Below, in pieces: positions 2,777-44,502 of a stretch of DNA of 64,000 nucleotides. Below the pieces are notes generated by a model. That model made no database searches, had not been told where the DNA came from, and saw nothing but the letters and a program-made list of their open reading frames with translations. The translations under genes were made by a program, and so were the position numbers. How positions within the stretch are numbered: the stretch's first letter is position 1; every line of letters begins with the position of its first letter. The stretch is from sequence record LC788706.1; one strand, given 5' to 3'. The DNA is from Escherichia coli phage KS_S14.

Positions 2777-3239
2777 CAGGGTGCTTCAAGCTCTAGATCT
2801 TCCAGAGCTCTTTACTATTACCGACCCCTTAATACATCGGTATATGGAAAAGTATAATGAAATCTCTGGTAAAAAAGGGAAACTAAAATCCTCAGAATTT
2901 AAGTTCTGTTATAGAATGGCAGCATTAAACCTCTTAAAGTACAAGAGGGAGCATAAAATCCCTATAACAGAAGGATTTGTCTATGTAATAGGTAATCCAG
3001 CATGGCCTGGACTATATAAGATAGGTATGACAGTAGATGTGAATGAAAGACTGTCTAGTTATCAAACATATTCGCCTTATCGTGATTACAAGTTATACCA
3101 TTTCAGATTCTCCTCGGACAAGAGAAGAACTGAAAAAGCATTACATAACCTTCTGAAGGACTACAAAGTATCAGGAGAATGGTTTGAAGTACCTCTGTTA
3201 GACGCCTTCAAACTATTAGTAGAAAATTTGGATTGCTAA
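2766..3239 (+). CDS. T5orf172-family (GIY-YIG-like) protein, paralog of 493..1011
   Basis: 157 aa; shares N- and C-terminal blocks with 493..1011; 3' end overlaps tRNA-Lys. Confidence 0.6.
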   Translation: MLINRVLQALDLPELFTITDPLIHRYMEKYNEISGKKGKLKSSEFKFCYRMAALNLLKYKREHKIPITEGFVYVIGNPAWPGLYKIGMTVDVNERLSSYQTYSPYRDYKLYHFRFSSDKRRTEKALHNLLKDYKVSGEWFEVPLLDAFKLLVENLDC

Positions 3240-3307
3240 CTCAACTGGATAAGAGTACCGGACCTTTAATCCGTCAGTTCTGGGTTCGAATCCCAGGCAA
3301 TCCACCA
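3230..3307 (+). tRNA. tRNA-Lys (anticodon TTT), tentative
   Basis: Acceptor ggattgc/gcaatcc, T-arm ctggg-ttcgaat-cccag, CCA; anticodon loop ccTTTaa with C at position 33. Confidence 0.5.
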
Positions 3308-3325
3308 ATTTCAAGAAAAACTCAG

Positions 3326-3354
3326 TTGCTTGATGCTTAATTTCTTGTTATAAT
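3326..3354 (+). promoter_or_regulatory. sigma70-type early promoter (TTGCTT-17-TATAAT) driving a non-coding transcript
   Basis: Consensus hexamers followed by ATAAATTGATGAGGAGAG box. Confidence 0.6.
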
Positions 3355-3361
3355 ATTTATA

Positions 3362-3592
3362 TAAATTGATGAGGAGAGATCCTCATCATAGTTCACTAAG
3401 GTATTAGCTCGACCTAGGACTGGCTGCCAAAAAGCACGATCCCTACGATTCGGGAGAAGTTCTAGATTAGTCCACTAGATTCAGCGGCAACTGAATAGTG
3501 TATTGGGTTTGCGAGATGACGCAGTTCCTTCCGCTCGAAGCGAAGGTGCTGTAGTTACGCCGAGCTAATAGCCTTAGTAAACTAAAGAATTT
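3362..3592 (+). ncRNA. promoter-driven structured RNA candidate upstream of tRNA-Ala
   Basis: Starts with perfect 7-bp hairpin gatgagg/cctcatc after the promoter; no ORF with RBS; further hairpins; ends at tRNA-Ala. Confidence 0.35.
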
Positions 3593-3671
3593 GGGGAATG
3601 GGTCTGCATGGAGTGGACACCTCGCTTGCACCGAGGACATCAGAACGGTTCGATTCCGTTATTCTCCACCA
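3593..3671 (+). tRNA. tRNA-Ala (anticodon TGC)
   Basis: Acceptor ggggaat/attctcc, anticodon stem cctcg/cgagg with loop ctTGCac, T-arm aacgg-ttcgatt-ccgtt, CCA. Confidence 0.6.
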
Positions 3672-3676
3672 AATAC

Positions 3677-3753
3677 GCGTGATTGATGGAATTGGCATAC
3701 ATACCGTCCTTAGAAGTCGGGTTTTGAGGGTTCGAATCCCTTGTCACGCACCA
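3677..3753 (+). tRNA. tRNA with TAG anticodon (Leu-type) but short variable region, atypical
   Basis: Acceptor gcgtgat/gtcacgc, T-arm gaggg-ttcgaat-ccctt, CCA; anticodon loop ctTAGaa; irregular D region. Confidence 0.45.
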
Positions 3754-3878
3754 AATTTGATGGTCAGAGTAAATTAAACCTACTATCTCGGTTGAGCTGT
3801 TTTAATGGGTTCGAATCCCAGCGAGGCGTAACTGCCTGGTGTGATAGAGGCATCATTCCACTAACATTGGAAAAACTA

Positions 3879-4109
3879 ATGAAACGAAAATTAAAAAAGT
3901 CTTATATAATTAAGATAAATAAGCTACGAAGTAGGGCAAAAGGATGGCCACTTCGAATATTAATTGCGGATAACCATACTAGATACCATGCGGAACAACG
4001 TCATTACAAACAGTGGGAGTCATACTGCCGCTCAAAAGCAGGTCGTTTAGATGGATCTTATGAGTTTCTATTTGGTAAGAAGCCTACTAGAGTAGCTTTA
4101 GGTAATTAG
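3879..4109 (+). CDS. small basic protein (76 aa)
   Basis: In-frame ATG inside ORF-track entry 3741..4109, whose upstream part is tRNA-like sequence; Lys/Arg-rich. Confidence 0.35.
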   Translation: MKRKLKKSYIIKINKLRSRAKGWPLRILIADNHTRYHAEQRHYKQWESYCRSKAGRLDGSYEFLFGKKPTRVALGN

Positions 4110-4114
4110 TACTT

Positions 4115-4205
4115 GGAAGAGCAAATCGAATTGGCGACGAAAACCGCTTGGAAAGTGGCTGACTGGTAAAACGGCTTGAGAGTTCAAATCTCTCCTCTTC
4201 CGCCA
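4115..4205 (+). tRNA. tRNA-Ser (anticodon GGA), class II
   Basis: Acceptor ggaagag/ctcttcc, anticodon loop ttGGAaa, long variable arm, T-arm gagag-ttcaaat-ctctc, CCA. Confidence 0.55.
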
Positions 4206-4217
4206 AACAATTTATAT

Positions 4218-4312
4218 GGTAGGTCAATCCAACGGCTGGCGCTGGACTCCGACTTGAAATCGGTTGATCGTAGTGATACGGTGTAAGGGTTCGATCCCCT
4301 TACCTACCTCCA
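4218..4312 (+). tRNA. tRNA-Ser (anticodon TGA), class II
   Basis: Acceptor ggtaggt/acctacc, anticodon loop ctTGAaa, long variable arm, T-arm aaggg-ttcgatc-ccctt, CCA. Confidence 0.55.
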
Positions 4313-4315
4313 AAT

Positions 4316-4451
4316 CTTGGAATATGCCGGAATTGGTAGACGGGACTGCCGAATAGGTTTACTAGGAACATCCACTCCTAGAAATATACCTTAAAAGCGG
4401 TTGAGTTAAATGGTCTAACTCATGAAGGTTCAAGCCCTTCTATTCCTTGAT
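4316..4451 (+). ncRNA. unresolved tRNA-like element (possibly class II tRNA with insertion)
   Basis: Leu-like D-loop gaattggtagac, hairpins ctagg/cctag and gagtta/taactc, perfect T-arm gaagg-ttcaagc-ccttc, no CCA; cloverleaf not resolved by hand. Confidence 0.3.
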
Positions 4452-4562
4452 ACATCAATGGCTCAAAGTGTAACGGTGCTATTTGATGCTCTTGGAAAGA
4501 CTTTCCCGACATGCGTTCGGGGGTAAGCTTCTGAGGCTAGAATAGAAGAGTTTCTGAGAGCC

Positions 4563-4682
4563 GCCACAATTGAAAATTCGTACTCGTCTTGAGCTGCGTG
4601 CAATAGGAGATAACTTGATTAGTATTCTAGAACATGCTAATTGAGGATGGTTTCGCTAACCCTGCGAGTTTTCAATTGTGGC
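4563..4682 (+). ncRNA. long-range stem structure (14-bp perfect inverted repeat) abutting tRNA-His
   Basis: gccacaattgaaaa at 4563-4576 pairs with ttttcaattgtggc at 4669-4682, enclosing about 90 nt; 3' arm overlaps tRNA-His 5' end. Confidence 0.3.
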
Positions 4683-4754
4683 TATATCATAATTGGTTAA
4701 TGATCCTGATTGTGAATCAGGCCTATGTGGATTCGAATTCCACTAGCCACCCCC
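4678..4754 (+). tRNA. tRNA-His (anticodon GTG)
   Basis: Acceptor gtggcta/tagccac, anticodon stem cctga/tcagg with loop ttGTGaa, T-arm gtgga-ttcgaat-tccac. Confidence 0.65.
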
Positions 4755-4780
4755 AAATTAACTTAAATAGGAAATAAAAT

Positions 4781-4981
4781 ATGGCTGATTTCTGCAAACA
4801 ATGCTCCATTGATATGTGGGGTAGAGATACTGGCGACTTATCTGGTCTGATTACAGAAGCCGAAGTCAAAGAAGGTTATGGTGCAGTTGTGGTTTGCGAA
4901 GGATGCGGAGTCATTCGAGTAGATCATGAAGGTAAGCGCCTTGAAGAACCTGAGCCAACCGCAATGGTTCCTGTAGAGTGA
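4781..4981 (+). CDS. small CxxC protein (zinc-ribbon-like)
   Basis: 66 aa; CKQC and CEGCG motifs; RBS present. Confidence 0.45.
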   Translation: MADFCKQCSIDMWGRDTGDLSGLITEAEVKEGYGAVVVCEGCGVIRVDHEGKRLEEPEPTAMVPVE

Positions 4982-37692: not shown

Positions 37693-38175
37693 ATGGCAAA
37701 TGATGTATTAGTACCAGATCTTATGTCCCCTGAAGGGATGGATGTAATTGAAGCATATTTACAGTGTGGCAGCGATGTGCCTTCTGCCGCACGTAGTCTT
37801 GGGATGTCCGAAATTGCTTTTCGAGATATTATGAATCGTAGTGAAGTTAAGAACTACTTAAATGATATTTTTATGGAGAGTGGTTTCCGTAACAGAGATC
37901 GTTTATTTGGTGTTCTGGATGAAGTTATCAAGCGTAAACTAGAGGAACTAGAAGAAACTGGCATGGGTTCTGACCAAGATATTATGGATATTCTCTGGAA
38001 AGCACATAAAATGAAAATGGAAGAAATGAAAATGATGGTAGAACTGGAGAAAGTGAAGGCAGCAGCCCGTACTCCAGCTAACCAGACCAACATCCAGAAT
38101 AATATTATTGCTGGAGCTGGGGATCAAAACTACATGGACTTAATTACTTCCCTAGCTACTGGAGGTAAGAAGTAA
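37693..38175 (+). CDS. terminase small subunit candidate
   Basis: 160 aa directly upstream of large terminase; HTH-like N-terminus. Confidence 0.5.
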
Positions 38176-39491
38176 TGGAAGTATCAAGACCTTACGTTAA
38201 TACAGTAGATGTTATTGATTTCGGAATAGATAAACGTTTCTTTCGTCTACCTGTTTCGGGAATACTAGCACAAGAAGGTATTACACCTAATGGTCCTCAA
38301 ATAGCGATTATTAATGCTCTAGAGGATCCTAGACATCGTTTTGTAACGGCGTGTGTATCACGCCGTGTAGGTAAATCCTTCATCGCATATACTCTTGGGT
38401 TCCTAAAATTGCTGGAACCTAATGTGAAGGTGTTAGTAGTTGCTCCTAACTATTCACTGGCCAACATCGGATGGTCTCAGATTCGTGGTCTTATTAAAAA
38501 ATATGGCCTACAAACTGAACGTGAGAACGCTAAAGATAAGGAAATTGAGTTAGCTAATGGTTCTCTGTTTAAACTAGCTTCCGCTGCTCAGGCTGACTCC
38601 GCAGTTGGACGTTCATATGATTTTATCATCTTTGACGAGGCGGCAATTTCCGATGTGGGTGGTGATGCCTTCAGGGTTCAGCTGCGTCCTACTCTAGATA
38701 AACCTAATTCTAAGGCTCTATTTATTTCCACACCTCGTGGAGGTAACTGGTTTAAAGAGTTTTACGCCTACGGATTTGATGATACGTTGCCTAACTGGGT
38801 ATCTATTCATGGTACATATCGTGATAACCCTCGTGCTGACCTGAATGATATAGAAGAAGCACGTCGTACGGTTAGTAAAAACTACTTCCGCCAGGAATAT
38901 GAAGCTGACTTCTCTGTATTTGAAGGTCAGATTTTTGATACTTTCAATGCTATTGACCATGTTAAAGACCTTAAGGGTATGCGTCATTTCTTTAAAGATG
39001 ATGAAGCATTCGAAACGTTGCTTGGTATCGACGTTGGTTATCGTGATCCTACAGCAGTTCTTACTATTAAGTATCATTACGATACGGATACTTACTATGT
39101 ATTAGAAGAGTATCAGCAGGCGGAGAAAACTACAGCTCAGCATGCTGCTTACATTCAGCACTGTATAGATCGTTATAAAGTTGATCGTATTTTTGTTGAC
39201 TCCGCGGCAGCTCAGTTCCGTCAAGACTTAGCTTATGAGCATGAAATTGCATCAGCTCCAGCTAAAAAATCTGTCCTAGATGGCCTAGCATGCCTGCAAG
39301 CACTGTTCCAACAGGGTAAGATTATTGTAGATGCCTCATGCTCCTCCTTAATTCATGCACTGCAGAACTATAAGTGGGACTTCCAAGAAGGTGAAGAGAA
39401 ATTATCACGTGAAAAACCACGTCATGATGCTAATTCTCACCTTTGTGATGCGCTGCGCTATGGAATTTACTCTATTTCCCGTGGTAAATAA
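38175..39491 (+). CDS. terminase large subunit
   Basis: 438 aa; Walker A-like RRVGKS, Walker B-like DFIIFDEAA, C-terminal nuclease-like region. Confidence 0.75.
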   Translation: MEVSRPYVNTVDVIDFGIDKRFFRLPVSGILAQEGITPNGPQIAIINALEDPRHRFVTACVSRRVGKSFIAYTLGFLKLLEPNVKVLVVAPNYSLANIGWSQIRGLIKKYGLQTERENAKDKEIELANGSLFKLASAAQADSAVGRSYDFIIFDEAAISDVGGDAFRVQLRPTLDKPNSKALFISTPRGGNWFKEFYAYGFDDTLPNWVSIHGTYRDNPRADLNDIEEARRTVSKNYFRQEYEADFSVFEGQIFDTFNAIDHVKDLKGMRHFFKDDEAFETLLGIDVGYRDPTAVLTIKYHYDTDTYYVLEEYQQAEKTTAQHAAYIQHCIDRYKVDRIFVDSAAAQFRQDLAYEHEIASAPAKKSVLDGLACLQALFQQGKIIVDASCSSLIHALQNYKWDFQEGEEKLSREKPRHDANSHLCDALRYGIYSISRGK

Positions 39492-39662
39492 ATAAATATA
39501 GGATGGGATACTACTCAGTTGGTATCCCATTCCTGTATTTTAAAATCCCCTTTACAAATTCGATACGATTATGTATACTATATTCATTGATCGGGAGAAC
39601 TTCTCCCATAATAGAACGTAAACAAGAAAAATTAATGCTCTACATGGGGTGTAGGAGATTCT

Positions 39663-40337
39663 ATGGGTCGACAAAAGCTAACAATAAAAGATATAAATAT
39701 TAGATTAGCTGATCGTGGAATCCAAATTGTCGGTGAGTATGTAAACCAACGTACAAAAACAGTATTTAAATGCCAGAGAGCACATGTTTGGGAAGCAACA
39801 CCACATTCTATACTCCATATGGGGAGAGGTTGTCCACACTGCTCCAATAATACAATATCGTTAGATGAAGTTAATAACAGAATATCTAATATAGGGTATA
39901 CTCTGTTAAGCAGCTATACTAATGCTAAAACAAAACTACATCTACGCTGCAATAATGGTCATGACTGTTTAATTACCTTAGATGGATTGACTCAAGGTAA
40001 GAGATGTCCTTATTGTTCTCTTAAGTGGGAGAATGGCGGATTCCTCTATATCATGTCCTCCTCTAGTGGTACTAAAGTAGGCATAAGCTTATACCCTGAG
40101 AAACGGCTGAATGAAGTTAAAAGAGAATCTGGATTTTCTGACCTATACTTGTTCACCATGTATCATCTGCCAGATAGAGAGACTGCTTTAGATTTAGAAA
40201 AGGAAGTTCACAGAGAATATTATAATAAAAACTGTGGGTTTTCTAATTTTACAGGAAGCACGGAATTTTTTAATGTTGCTCCTGAGGATATAGTAATCTT
40301 TCTAAGTAGCTTTGGATTGGAGGATTATGGCCACTAA
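39663..40337 (+). CDS. zinc-ribbon plus T5orf172/GIY-YIG-like homing-endonuclease-like protein
   Basis: 224 aa; two GxGCPxC ribbon repeats and C-terminal GGFLYIM...KVGIS...EFF block; sits between terminase and portal. Confidence 0.5.
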   Translation: MGRQKLTIKDINIRLADRGIQIVGEYVNQRTKTVFKCQRAHVWEATPHSILHMGRGCPHCSNNTISLDEVNNRISNIGYTLLSSYTNAKTKLHLRCNNGHDCLITLDGLTQGKRCPYCSLKWENGGFLYIMSSSSGTKVGISLYPEKRLNEVKRESGFSDLYLFTMYHLPDRETALDLEKEVHREYYNKNCGFSNFTGSTEFFNVAPEDIVIFLSSFGLEDYGH

Positions 40338-40764
40338 TACTAAGTACAAACGTGATGCCATTTCCATAATGAGGGATGGTATAAAATCTAGGTATAGTAA
40401 GGATGGTTGCTGTGCTATATGTGGTAGTAGTGAAGACCTAGAACTTCACCATTATCATACTATATCTCAGCTAATAAAAAAATTTGCTAAAGAACTCCAG
40501 CTGGATTTCACTGATGAGAATATCGTCCTTTCAAATAGGGAAGCATTCTACAAGAAATATGAGCATGAGTTAGTTAGGGACGTGGTAACATTGTGCCAGC
40601 ACCATCACCAATTATTACATAAGGTTTACACAAAAGAACCTCCTTTATTTTCTGCTAATAAGCAAAAAGCGTGGGTTCAAAAGCAGAAAGACAAATTACA
40701 GAATCCTCAAGAAAAGACACAAGTCAAGACTGAAACAAAATCAGGATTCGCAAGGTTCTTATAA
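40312..40764 (+). CDS. HNH endonuclease
   Basis: 150 aa; CCAICGSSEDLELHHYH and CQHHHQLLH motifs. Confidence 0.6.
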   Translation: MDWRIMATNTKYKRDAISIMRDGIKSRYSKDGCCAICGSSEDLELHHYHTISQLIKKFAKELQLDFTDENIVLSNREAFYKKYEHELVRDVVTLCQHHHQLLHKVYTKEPPLFSANKQKAWVQKQKDKLQNPQEKTQVKTETKSGFARFL

Positions 40765-41981
40765 TGGGTTTTAAAAGCTGGATTACTGAAAAGCTAAATC
40801 CGGGTCAACGTATTATAAGAGACATGGAACCAGTTAGTCATCGCACTAACCGTAAGCCTTTTACCACTGGACAAGCCTATAGCAAGATTGAGATTCTCAA
40901 TCGAACTGCCAATATGGTTATAGATAGTGCGGCGGAGTGTTCTTATACTGTCGGAGATAAATATAATATTGTTACGTACGCTAATGGCGTCAAAACAAAG
41001 ACTCTAGACACTCTCTTAAATGTACGACCTAATCCATTCATGGATATAAGTACATTCCGTAGACTTGTAGTCACTGACCTACTTTTTGAAGGTTGTGCAT
41101 ACATCTATTGGGATGGCACATCGCTTTACCATGTCCCGGCTGCTCTTATGCAGGTCGAGGCAGATGCCAATAAGTTTATCAAAAAATTTACATTTAATAA
41201 TCAGATAGACTATCGCGTAGATGAGATTATCTTTATAAAGGATAACAGTTACGTGTGTGGCACAAATTCTCAAATTTCTGGACAATCTCGTGTTGCTACT
41301 GTTATTGATTCTCTTGAAAAGCGTTCTAAGATGCTTAACTTTAAAGAGAAATTCTTAGATAACGGAACCGTGATTGGTCTTATTCTTGAGACGGATGAAA
41401 TCCTGAACAAGAAATTGCGTGAGCGTAAACAAGAAGAATTACAACTCGATTATAATCCTAGTACGGGTCAGTCTTCTGTCCTGATTCTAGATGGTGGTAT
41501 GAAAGCTAAACCGTACTCCCAAATATCCTCTTTTAAAGATCTAGACTTTAAGGAAGACATCGAAGGATTTAATAAATCTATTTGTCTAGCCTTTGGAGTT
41601 CCGCAAGTACTGCTTGATGGTGGTAATAATGCGAATATTCGACCAAACATCGAATTGTTCTATTATATGACTATCATTCCTATGCTGAACAAACTGACTA
41701 GTTCTCTTACTTTCTTTTTTGGTTATAAGATTACCCCTAATACTAAGGAGGTAGCTGCATTAACACCAGATAAAGAAGCTGAGGCTAAACATTTAACCTC
41801 ATTGGTTAATAATGGTATTATGACTGGTAACGAAGCTCGTTTAGAGCTGAACCTTGAACCTTTAGATGATGAGCAGATGGATAGGATTCGTATTCCTGCT
41901 AACGTTGCTGGTTCTGCAACAGGTGTATCTGGTCAAGAAGGTGGTAGACCTCAAGGTTCCACCGAGGGAGATAAAGAATGA
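40764..41981 (+). CDS. portal protein
   Basis: 405 aa, next structural gene after terminase and upstream of protease; size near recalled T5 portal. Confidence 0.6.
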   Translation: MGFKSWITEKLNPGQRIIRDMEPVSHRTNRKPFTTGQAYSKIEILNRTANMVIDSAAECSYTVGDKYNIVTYANGVKTKTLDTLLNVRPNPFMDISTFRRLVVTDLLFEGCAYIYWDGTSLYHVPAALMQVEADANKFIKKFTFNNQIDYRVDEIIFIKDNSYVCGTNSQISGQSRVATVIDSLEKRSKMLNFKEKFLDNGTVIGLILETDEILNKKLRERKQEELQLDYNPSTGQSSVLILDGGMKAKPYSQISSFKDLDFKEDIEGFNKSICLAFGVPQVLLDGGNNANIRPNIELFYYMTIIPMLNKLTSSLTFFFGYKITPNTKEVAALTPDKEAEAKHLTSLVNNGIMTGNEARLELNLEPLDDEQMDRIRIPANVAGSATGVSGQEGGRPQGSTEGDKE

Positions 41982-42472
41982 TTGATTATAATGGTCTAAA
42001 GACCATTTTTGGTGAAAAACTGCCAGAATCTCATATCTTCTTTGCTACGGTTGCTGCGCATAAATATGTTCCTAGCTATGCTTTTCTGCGTAGAGAACTA
42101 GGGCTTTCATCTGCGCATACTAACCGTAAAGTATGGAAGAAATTTGTAGAGGCTTATGGTAAAGCAGTTCCTCCTGCTCCACCGGCCCCACCGTTAACTC
42201 TTTCTAAAGATTTAACTGCTAGCATGTCAGTTGAAGAGGGAGCAGCATTAACACTTTCTGTTACTGCAACTGGTGGTACTGGTCCATATACTTATGCATG
42301 GACTAAAGATGGTTCTCCTATTCCGGATGCTTCAGGAGCTACCTATACTAAGCCTACAGCAGCAGCTGAGGATGCCGGCTCTTATAAAGTAACTGTAACA
42401 GATAGTAAGCAAGTAAGTAAGGACTCTACTACATGTGCTGTGACAGTTAATCCTACTGTTCCTGGAGGCTAA
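41978..42472 (+). CDS. capsid decoration protein with Ig-like domain (pb10-like)
   Basis: 164 aa; proline-rich linker then Ig-like C-terminal region. Confidence 0.5.
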   Translation: MIDYNGLKTIFGEKLPESHIFFATVAAHKYVPSYAFLRRELGLSSAHTNRKVWKKFVEAYGKAVPPAPPAPPLTLSKDLTASMSVEEGAALTLSVTATGGTGPYTYAWTKDGSPIPDASGATYTKPTAAAEDAGSYKVTVTDSKQVSKDSTTCAVTVNPTVPGG

Positions 42473-42475
42473 TAA

Positions 42476-43108
42476 ATGACACAAGCTGCTATTGACTATA
42501 ACAAGTTAAAATCAGCACCCGTTCATTTAGATGCTTATATTAAATCTATTGATAGCGAATCCAAAGAAGGTGTTGTAAAAATCCGTGGATTCGCTAATAC
42601 AATTAGTAAAGATCGCGCTGGTGATGTAATTCCTGCTTCTGCGTGGAAAACGTCTAATGCACTTACTAACTACATGAAAAACCCGATTATTCTTTTCGGA
42701 CACGATCATCGTCGTCCAATCGGTAAGTGTATTGATCTTAATCCTACTGAAATGGGTCTCGAAATCGAATGCGAGATCTATGAAAGTTCTGACCCGGCTA
42801 TCTTTTCACTAATTAAAAACGGTGTACTGAAAACTTTTAGTATCGGATTCCGCTGCCTAGATGCAGAGTGGGATGAAGCTACTGATATATTTATTATTAA
42901 AGATTTAGAACTATACGAAGTCTCGGTAGTTTCTGTACCTTGTAATCAGGACTCAACATTCAATCTCGCTAAGAGCATGAATGGTCATGATTATACTGAA
43001 TGGCGTAAATCTTTTACTGCAATAAGTTCTAAAGCTGTCCCAGCTCAAGAACGTAATCTTTCTGAACTAGAAAAACTTGCGATAGCTTTAGGCTACGTTA
43101 AAGAATAA
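42476..43108 (+). CDS. prohead protease
   Basis: 210 aa between decoration and capsid genes; FGHDH motif. Confidence 0.55.
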   Translation: MTQAAIDYNKLKSAPVHLDAYIKSIDSESKEGVVKIRGFANTISKDRAGDVIPASAWKTSNALTNYMKNPIILFGHDHRRPIGKCIDLNPTEMGLEIECEIYESSDPAIFSLIKNGVLKTFSIGFRCLDAEWDEATDIFIIKDLELYEVSVVSVPCNQDSTFNLAKSMNGHDYTEWRKSFTAISSKAVPAQERNLSELEKLAIALGYVKE

Positions 43109-43125
43109 CGGAGAATTATTTAAAA

Positions 43126-44502
43126 ATGACTATTGATATTAATAAGCTGAAAGAAGAACTTGGTCTGGGTGATCTGGCTAAATCTCTGGAAGGTCTGACC
43201 GCTGCTCAGAAAGCTGCCGAAGCTGAACGTATGCGCAAAGAGCAGGAAGAAAAAGAACTGGCTCGTATGAATGATCTGGTTTCTAAAGCAGTTGGTGAAG
43301 ATCGTCAGAAGCTAGAAGAAGCTCTGGAACTGGTTAAATCCCTGGATGAAAAATCTAAAAAGAGCGCAGAACTGTTTGCACAGACTGTAGAAAAACAGCA
43401 GGAAACTATTATTGGTCTTCAGGACGAAATCAAATCTCTACTGGCAGCTCGTGAAGGACGTTCCTTCGTCGGTGATAGCGTAGCTAAAGCACTGTATGGT
43501 ACTCAGGAAGCTTTCGAAGATGAAGTTGAAAAACTAGTTCTGCTATCTTATGTAATGGAAAAAGGCGTATTCGAAACTGAACATGGTCAGAATCACCTTA
43601 AAGCTGTAAACACCTCTTCTTCAGTTCAGGTTTCTAATGAAAACTATGAAACTATTTTCTCCCAGCGTATCATTCGTGATCTGCAGAAAGAGCTGGTAGT
43701 TGGTGCACTGTTCGAAGAATTGCCGATGTCTAGTAAGATTCTTACTATGCTAGTTGAACCAGATGCTGGTAAAGCTACTTGGGTTGCTGCTTCTACTTAT
43801 GGTACTGATGCAACTACTGGTGAAGAAGTTAAAGGTGCTCTGACTGAAATTCATTTCAGTACTTACAAATTAGCTGCTAAGTCCTTCATTACTGATGAAA
43901 CTGAAGAAGATGCAATCTTCTCTCTGCTGCCTCTGCTGCGTAAACGCCTGATTGAAGCACACGCTGTTTCTATCGAAGAAGCTTTCATGACTGGTGATGG
44001 TTCTGGTAAGCCGAAAGGTCTGCTGACCCTTGCTAGCGAAGATAGTGCTAAGGTTGTTACCGAGGCTAAAGCTGATGGTTCTGTATTAGTAACTGCTAAA
44101 ACTATTTCTAAACTGCGTCGTAAACTGGGCCGTCATGGTCTGAAACTTAGCAAACTAGTACTGATCGTATCTATGGATGCTTATTACGATCTGCTGGAAG
44201 ATGAAGAATGGCAGGATGTTGCACAGGTTGGTAACGATGCTGTTAAACTGCAAGGTCAGGTTGGTCGTATTTATGGTCTGCCAGTTGTAGTTTCTGAATA
44301 CTTCCCTGCTAAAGCTGCTTCCGCAGAATTCGCAGTTATCGTTTATAAAGATAACTTTGTAATGCCGCGTCAGCGTGCTGTTACTGTTGAACGTGAGCGC
44401 CAAGCTGGTAAACAGCGTGACGCGTACTACGTTACCCAGCGTGTTAACCTGCAACGTTACTTTAATAACGGCGTTGTATCCGGTACTTACGCTGCATCTT
44501 AA
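43126..44502 (+). CDS. major capsid protein precursor
   Basis: 458 aa; coiled-coil N-terminal scaffold-like domain; HK97-like position; highly expressed codon style. Confidence 0.7.
   Translation: MTIDINKLKEELGLGDLAKSLEGLTAAQKAAEAERMRKEQEEKELARMNDLVSKAVGEDRQKLEEALELVKSLDEKSKKSAELFAQTVEKQQETIIGLQDEIKSLLAAREGRSFVGDSVAKALYGTQEAFEDEVEKLVLLSYVMEKGVFETEHGQNHLKAVNTSSSVQVSNENYETIFSQRIIRDLQKELVVGALFEELPMSSKILTMLVEPDAGKATWVAASTYGTDATTGEEVKGALTEIHFSTYKLAAKSFITDETEEDAIFSLLPLLRKRLIEAHAVSIEEAFMTGDGSGKPKGLLTLASEDSAKVVTEAKADGSVLVTAKTISKLRRKLGRHGLKLSKLVLIVSMDAYYDLLEDEEWQDVAQVGNDAVKLQGQVGRIYGLPVVVSEYFPAKAASAEFAVIVYKDNFVMPRQRAVTVERERQAGKQRDAYYVTQRVNLQRYFNNGVVSGTYAAS

Follow-up and report, generated by a model that had tools for sequence, protein, structure and literature searches.

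What kind of molecule is a phage tRNA that carries a leucine anticodon on a body with no long variable arm? By the textbook rule, tRNA-Leu belongs to class II everywhere except in animal mitochondria, and the gene at positions 3677–3753 of Escherichia coli phage KS_S14 (LC788706.1; the whole 64,000-nucleotide stretch analysed here is called the window) places a UAG anticodon in a class I framework. A sequence-only reading of this DNA had proposed three ways to account for the combination: an altered amino acid identity, a pseudo-tRNA, or an error in a fold drawn by hand. We consider it very probable that the gene instead encodes a functional phage tRNA-Leu(UAG) in which a 5-nt loop takes the place of the long arm, which is charged with leucine by the host LeuRS, and which supplies decoding of CUA codons.

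The tRNA is a feature far beyond chance. ARAGORN calls tRNA-Leu(tag), 77 nt long and on the plus strand, at exactly 3677–3753, as one of 14 tRNA genes that it finds on that strand between 398 and 6894 of the window, and RF00005 aligns end to end (model positions 1–71) with 3677–3750, scoring 47.5 bits where the gathering score is 29 (E = 7e-8 in a search over 9 kb). This full-length match above the gathering score identifies a cloverleaf tRNA, and the alignment places only a short variable loop in it. That loop, GTTTT, falls within the 4–5 nt of class I and forms no extra stem; the stem-loop arm of more than 10 nt expected of a class II tRNA-Leu is absent. The hand fold, with its 77 nt, its loop ctTAGaa and its 5-nt variable region, was therefore right in every detail, and the check proposed for it, a fold derived by a program, returns the same TAG anticodon and no long variable arm, so that the ARAGORN call and the RF00005 alignment together exclude a folding error. 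In the ARAGORN structure string the acceptor stem has 7 bp, and a D stem of 3 bp is followed by G13.A22 and an 11-nt D loop; this loop, AATTGGCAT, reads A14 A15 U16 U17 G18 G19 C20 A20a U21. One of the five positions of the anticodon stem is a mismatch, U30.U40. The minimum free energy fold of the bare transcript is not a cloverleaf (z = −1.38); such an outcome is common for unmodified tRNA sequences and is therefore not counted against the tRNA call. The coordinates of all parts are collected in Table 1.

Table 1. The class I tRNA-Leu(UAG) gene, its structural parts and the tRNA gene upstream of it (positions in the window)
Feature	Positions	Strand	Basis
tRNA-Ala(UGC), 5 nt upstream of the Leu gene	3593..3671	+	ARAGORN
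tRNA-Leu(UAG) gene, class I, CCA encoded; same as BF23 tRNAL1	3677..3753	+	ARAGORN, RF00005, 100% identity to NC_042564.1
Acceptor stem, 5′ strand GCGTGAT; partner 3743–3749 (GTCACGC)	3677..3683	+	ARAGORN structure string
D arm, 3 bp plus G13.A22	3686..3702	+	ARAGORN structure string
Anticodon arm, stem CCGTC/GTCGG, loop CTTAGAA (A37)	3704..3720	+	ARAGORN structure string, sequence
Anticodon TAG, reads CUA (and CUG by wobble)	3711..3713	+	Sequence, ARAGORN
Variable loop GTTTT, 5 nt; last base U48 able to pair with A15 (Levitt pair)	3721..3725	+	
T arm GAGGG-TTCGAAT-CCCTT, 5 bp; U54, U55, C56, A58 present	3726..3742	+	RF00005, ARAGORN
Acceptor stem, 3′ strand 3743–3749; discriminator A73 3750; CCA 3751–3753	3743..3753	+	Sequence, ARAGORN

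The gene is not peculiar to this phage. Over this region the DNA shares 98% identity with T5-like phages from E. coli and Salmonella, and the window runs from the tRNA cluster into the terminase, portal, capsid and pb4 tail genes of such a phage. The 77-mer recurs with 100% identity in many Demerecviridae records (at least 99% in 130 and at least 95% in 161), its identical copies spanning phages of E. coli, Salmonella, Klebsiella and Yersinia. A blastn search with the 77-mer against 5,426 E. coli genomes returned no match. One of the phage copies, identical over all 77 nt, is tRNAL1 of phage BF23 (NC_042564.1, 3881–3957), and its annotation states that 'replacement of the anticodon with CUA sequence converts this tRNA into effective amber suppressor'. 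The BF23 gene must therefore be expressed, processed and charged in E. coli, and continued activity after an anticodon swap fits a synthetase that is blind to the anticodon, such as LeuRS. Hence the gene studied here is already known and functionally tested as BF23 tRNAL1, while its architecture has been little discussed. Elsewhere in T5-like genomes there is a second 77-nt class I tRNA, with the anticodon UAA; tRNAL2 of Salmonella phage 5 is a class I tRNA-Leu(UAA) of this kind, and its record bears the same suppressor note. In the record of Yersinia phage phiR2-01 the gene identical to ours is labelled 'tRNA-Pseudo-TAG', a label that is an annotation artefact.

Comparison with the annotated tRNAs of phage T5, which the sequence-only reading had suggested, proved to be the right place to look. 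At the same site T5 has its own tRNAL1(UAG) (NC_005859.1, 31624–31708), directly after tRNA-Ala, but this gene is 85 nt long and of class II, with a 13-nt variable arm. The two tRNAs share the UAG anticodon, the position in the cluster, and A73, A14, A15, G18G19, A20a and U48, whereas their stems are unrelated in sequence. The idea that the class I gene is the T5 class II gene minus its arm is rejected on this ground; the unrelated stems mark the two as alternative alleles of a polymorphic locus, not as a deletion pair. The class II allele occurs in 54 phage records, T5 included, and the class I allele in about 163.

The adjacent Ala–Leu pair is common to the window, BF23 and T5, and the tRNA-Ala(UGC) and tRNA-Leu(UAG) genes are probably co-transcribed. 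A scan of 3200–4400 for sigma-70 promoters found no site, and the sole terminator-like site lay on the minus strand; the transcription context of the Leu gene is thus taken from the BF23 annotation. In BF23, as in the window, a tRNA-Ala gene lies directly upstream of the Leu gene and a Ser-type sequence downstream; the Leu gene itself is the same in both, but the window has another tRNA-Ala allele upstream and an insertion of roughly 256 bp downstream. The window tRNA-Ala (3593–3671) has 79 nt, as opposed to 74–75 nt in BF23 and T5; its variable region is 7 nt long, its D arm is odd and it scores only 36.3 bits against RF00005, although G3:U70 is kept; since it differs from its BF23 and T5 counterparts, an allele has been replaced at the Ala locus too. 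Beyond the Leu gene, the spacer 3754–3856 is conserved with BF23 (92.5% over 3307–3856) and contains a perfect T-arm-like GGGTTCGAATCCC at 3807–3819, with no recognisable tRNA around it, which may be a tRNA remnant. The stretch of about 256 bp that lies between the Leu and Ser genes and is missing from BF23 (3857–4112) contains a possible small ORF from an ATG at 3881 (atgaaacgaaaattaaaaaag...). At 4218–4312 lies a sequence resembling tRNA-Ser(UGA), which ARAGORN overlooks at default settings and folds with a mismatched acceptor stem at relaxed ones. Its only Rfam match, of the tRNA-Sec type, scores 38.3 bits and so falls short of the gathering score of 47; the sequence shares 80% identity with the tRNAS2/tRNAS1 region of BF23 and may be a decaying Ser tRNA. 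From there on, 4312–4800 aligns at 97.8% with the BF23 region annotated as the stable RNAs RNA1 (tRNA-like), RNAI and RNAIII, whose function is unassigned in the record; 4316–4676 belongs to this BF23-like stretch, and a weak Rfam tRNA match at 4380–4448 (21.6 bits) falls inside the counterpart of RNA1.

Whether a short-armed tRNA can be a leucine tRNA depends on what the synthetase reads. [quoted passage not shown] Hence the earlier view that a short-armed tRNA with a leucine anticodon is atypical for bacteria stands, but the long arm is not, for an E. coli-type LeuRS, the leucine identity requirement that it was taken to be (PMC9976931). The phage tRNA has the discriminator A73 (position 3750), A15:U48 together with U8:A14, and G18G19, A20a and the T-loop bases U54, U55, C56 and A58 (D loop AATTGGCAT, T loop TTCGAAT); to judge from its primary structure, it carries the full E. 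coli LeuRS identity set, and we infer that leucine is the amino acid attached to it.

It is informative to compare the phage tRNA with the host tRNAs leuW (tRNA-Leu(UAG)) and leuT (tRNA-Leu(CAG)), with which it shares the decoding box, G13.A22, A15:U48 and A73. The D loops are near-identical, AATTGGTAG in the host tRNAs and AATTGGCAT in the phage; unlike the phage tRNA, however, the host tRNAs have variable arms of 13–15 nt, G37 and the T loop TTCAAGT. With the D loop and variable region excluded, identity to leuW/leuT is 0.57, and at most 0.48 for the others among eight distinct E. coli tRNAs. Class II Leu tRNAs are likewise the nearest relatives beyond the class I Leu group, but nearest-neighbour assignment by overall identity discriminates only weakly (mean 0.553 for class II Leu and 0.550 for Gly), and we therefore used the statistics of identity elements instead. 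One feature departs from the pattern: the anticodon loop is not of the CUN type, with A37 where leuW has G37, and G37 is the m1G37 site in CUN-reading tRNA-Leu. A37 also occurs elsewhere, in 9 of 21 class I and 16 of 86 class II viral tRNA-Leu(UAG) from the less biased scan described below.

If the tRNA is charged with leucine, the phage genes should treat CUA as a leucine codon, and they do. We aligned the terminase, portal and major capsid genes by codon with three sets of orthologues, at 94%, 79% and 62% amino-acid identity. In these genes 22 codons are CTA, and they align to leucine in 22/22, 19/22 and 16/22 cases, respectively, a record indistinguishable from that of the other five leucine codons, and their partners are mostly leucine codons other than CTA (TTA, CTG, CTT, TTG and CTC). 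In these three structural genes and three orthologue sets there is no sign that CUA has been recoded; CUA is leucine in the phage genes, and a tRNA(UAG) bearing another amino acid would therefore mistranslate them. A suppressor tRNA is a reading of a different kind, and is rejected as well, since the anticodon 5′-UAG-3′ pairs with the codon CUA and not with the stop codon UAG.

The same codon is in heavy demand. CUA accounts for 21.6% of leucine codons (17.5 per 1000 codons) in the 37 ORFs of the window that reach 150 aa, whereas the same procedure applied to a 49-kb segment of E. coli K-12 gives 2.6% (2.8 per 1000); the phage is AT-rich, and its use of CUA is about 6 times that of E. coli. 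Codon supply would be a sufficient rationale for carrying the gene, and is the selective benefit that we would propose. Leucine codon usage varies within the window: TTA is the commonest leucine codon over all long ORFs (32%), and CTG is the commonest in the terminase, portal and capsid genes at 38175–44502 (49/119).

The short arm is by no means confined to T5-like phages. We scanned IMG/VR with a pattern for short-variable-loop tRNAs with a CTTAGAA anticodon loop and ran ARAGORN on all fetched loci. All 120 of the matching loci listed held a class I tRNA(UAG), in at least 88 distinct sequences. Class I tRNAs with the anticodons UAA (at least 26), CAA (at least 39) and GAG (at least 7), none of which had been preselected, were present in these loci as well. 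Class I tRNAs with the leucine anticodons UAA, CAA, GAG and AAG are frequent in viral contigs (loci L012–L131 and L177–L296). Among the 1453 unique viral tRNAs of the loci listed, A73 is present in 100% of every Leu-anticodon group, and the class I Leu-anticodon groups with n of at least 7 have A73 in 100% and A15:U48 in 95–100%. The joint signature of A73, A15:U48 and a Leu-type D loop is found, in the listed loci, in 57–77% of class I Leu tRNAs, on a par with the 75% of class II Leu tRNAs, as against 1% of 1110 other tRNAs and 0% of the long-armed Ser and Tyr tRNAs. Likewise, arm loss in viral tRNAs is specific to Leu: viral Ser tRNAs in these loci have 96 long and 2 short arms, and Tyr tRNAs 37 long and 2 short. 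SerRS depends on the long arm for serine identity, which fits the retention of the arm by phage Ser tRNAs. A less biased scan of IMG/VR, with position 37 and the variable length left free, gave 107 distinct tRNA-Leu(UAG), of which 86 were of class II and 21 (20%) of class I.

Outside viral contigs the picture is different. Across 185,579 bacterial and archaeal species, with one genome each, the class I pattern occurred in 45 places; ARAGORN called tRNAs in 44 of these 45 loci, 43 of which held a class I tRNA(UAG), and 30 were arrays with at least six tRNAs in 8 kb. These loci, from genomes and MAGs alike (L132–L176), lie mostly in dense arrays of 6–30 tRNA genes and come from many phyla, among them Acidobacteriota, Actinomycetota, Bacteroidota, Planctomycetota and Armatimonadota. 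The density of the arrays is phage-like or mobile-element-like. The distribution as a whole suggests that class I Leu-anticodon tRNAs, though common in viral contigs and in tRNA arrays, are rare in other parts of bacterial genomes. Short-armed leucine tRNAs thus seem to be widespread in phages and to work with ordinary bacterial LeuRS, and seem to be under-recognised; our search of the literature, incomplete in its coverage, turned up no paper that reports a class I tRNA-Leu from phages.

The class I form also behaves as a maintained structure. When 30 diverse class I UAG tRNAs are aligned, compensatory double changes are seen at 18 of the 20 consensus pairs, and a variable loop of 5 nt is retained in the consensus. 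The compensatory counts are conservative, because MAFFT wrongly renders one D-loop insertion as a gap at the start of the 75-nt sequences and thereby inflates the number of acceptor-stem pairs scored as broken. The U30.U40 mismatch (listed at window positions 3706 and 3716) recurs in 5 of the 30, and in a homologue from a Shigella phage (Mooglevirus; L007) the U.U is kept as the neighbouring pair 29:41 changes from G-C to A-U. The anticodon is also retained, with compensatory changes in the stems, by homologues of 75–89% identity from Ounavirinae, Vequintavirinae and Vibrio phages. As far as aligned sequences can tell, the structure of the class I UAG tRNA is under selection.

With this evidence in hand, the alternatives can be weighed. 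A class I shape paired with a leucine anticodon invites the thought of a switched identity, in which a class I tRNA acquired the UAG anticodon and inserts a residue other than leucine at CUN codons. There are precedents in the yeast mitochondrial tRNA-Thr(UAG) and the Ashbya mitochondrial tRNA-Ala(UAG) (PMC7609411), and the BF23 record names no amino acid inserted by the suppressor derivative. The phage tRNA, however, resembles neither precedent, having G3-C70 in place of the alanine determinant G3:U70 and an anticodon loop of 7 nt rather than the 8 nt of the threonine type. Its D loop, A15:U48 and A73 form the leucine set, a combination that 1% of other isotypes possess; CTA stands at leucine positions as often as the other leucine codons do and interchanges with them; and a switched tRNA would face competition from the host's own tRNA-Leu(UAG). 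With the full LeuRS set in place, no G3:U70, a loop that is not enlarged and CUA read as leucine, the altered identity envisaged earlier appears highly improbable. The other early suspicion, a pseudo-tRNA or a decaying gene copy with no function, could draw on the phiR2-01 label for an identical sequence, on the U.U mismatch in the anticodon stem, on an RF00005 score that is modest relative to those of neighbouring tRNAs, on the non-cloverleaf MFE fold, and on the degenerate look of the Ser-like gene nearby. It is countered by 100% identity across many T5-like genomes, by diverged homologues (75–89%) that retain the anticodon and compensate in their stems, by conservation of the mismatch itself while the adjacent pair covaries, and by the activity seen in the BF23 suppressor experiment. 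Given this activity, the compensatory changes and an occurrence in more than 160 phage genomes, we reject the pseudo-tRNA and leave it almost no weight.

A further possibility accepts a leucine tRNA but holds that the short arm, and perhaps A37, were selected mainly for immunity to host tRNA nucleases, so that the gene is an anti-defence substitute for a host tRNA. Retron-Eco7 and Septu cleave host tRNA-Tyr in its variable arm, and the tRNA-Tyr of T5 resists them through a different variable loop (PMC13096335); phage tRNAs have also been proposed to evade anticodon nucleases (PMC10264068, PMC10644984). The concentration of class I Leu tRNAs in viral contigs and tRNA arrays, and the higher frequency of A37 in class I than in class II viral tRNA-Leu(UAG), would both fit. 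Set against these points, our literature search found no nuclease reported to act on the variable arm of tRNA-Leu, T5 and 53 other phage records carry the class II allele at the same site, the strong CUA bias is already reason enough for the gene, and where LeuRS can do without the arm, its loss may be neutral. As the main driver of the short arm, escape from nucleases therefore seems distinctly unlikely, although it is compatible with a functional, leucine-charged tRNA. We are also doubtful of a broader proposition, that arm loss is a design of tRNA-Leu specific to phages and recurring across many bacterial phyla, and think it rather improbable. If it were true, the textbook rule on class II would be contradicted, enterobacterial and many other LeuRS would charge class I tRNA-Leu efficiently in vivo, contrary to the account in PMC6614811, and the arm-less form might have been selected to escape host nucleases or factors that recognise the class II arm.

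A functional, leucine-charged tRNA-Leu(UAG) could work as follows. The gene would be transcribed as part of the phage's tRNA cluster, where it follows directly on tRNA-Ala, with its CCA end already encoded. The host LeuRS, which in E. coli reads neither the anticodon nor the long arm, would leucylate the product through A73 and the tertiary core (U8:A14, A15:U48, G18G19, A20a and the contacts between D loop and T loop), and the charged tRNA would add decoding capacity for CUA, and for CUG by wobble. T5 mutants with deletions in the tRNA region are mentioned in PMC11464382, and the gene is thus probably dispensable in the laboratory.

Several consequences follow. The annotation is settled in favour of a genuine tRNA-Leu(UAG), as against a pseudogene, a suppressor tRNA or a means of recoding, and the record that has the gene as 'Pseudo' is a caution for tRNA annotation by isotype models. 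The phage short-armed tRNA-Leu and the enterobacterial LeuRS together offer a natural test case for the rules of LeuRS recognition, and the gene provides a lead on whether host defences that target tRNAs shape tRNA architecture.

Short-armed tRNAs with leucine anticodons are known from other systems, each of which differs from the phage tRNA. Streptomyces coelicolor has a type I tRNA-Leu(CAA) with a short loop, which coexists with class II isoacceptors; a single LeuRS handles both types of tRNA-Leu there, for the first time in any organism according to Fan et al. 2019 (PMC6614811). That tRNA is chromosomal, has the anticodon CAA and does not use A73 as an identity element; E. coli LeuRS, described as specific for type II, could not charge it (PMC6614811), so that a short arm is not automatically tolerated. 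The phage tRNA-Leu(UAG), unlike its Streptomyces counterpart, must work with an enterobacterial LeuRS. In animal mitochondria tRNA-Leu is of class I, as in the phage, but is paired with a dedicated mitochondrial LeuRS, and the yeast mitochondrial tRNA-Thr(UAG) joins a class I body to a Leu-box anticodon but has an 8-nt loop and a tRNA-His origin, neither of which is found in the phage tRNA. A further parallel comes from engineered E. coli tRNA-Leu that lacks the arm, in which leucylation is reported to persist as long as A73 and the tertiary contacts between D and T loops are intact (PMC9976931); the phage tRNA looks like a natural, conserved version of these laboratory constructs.
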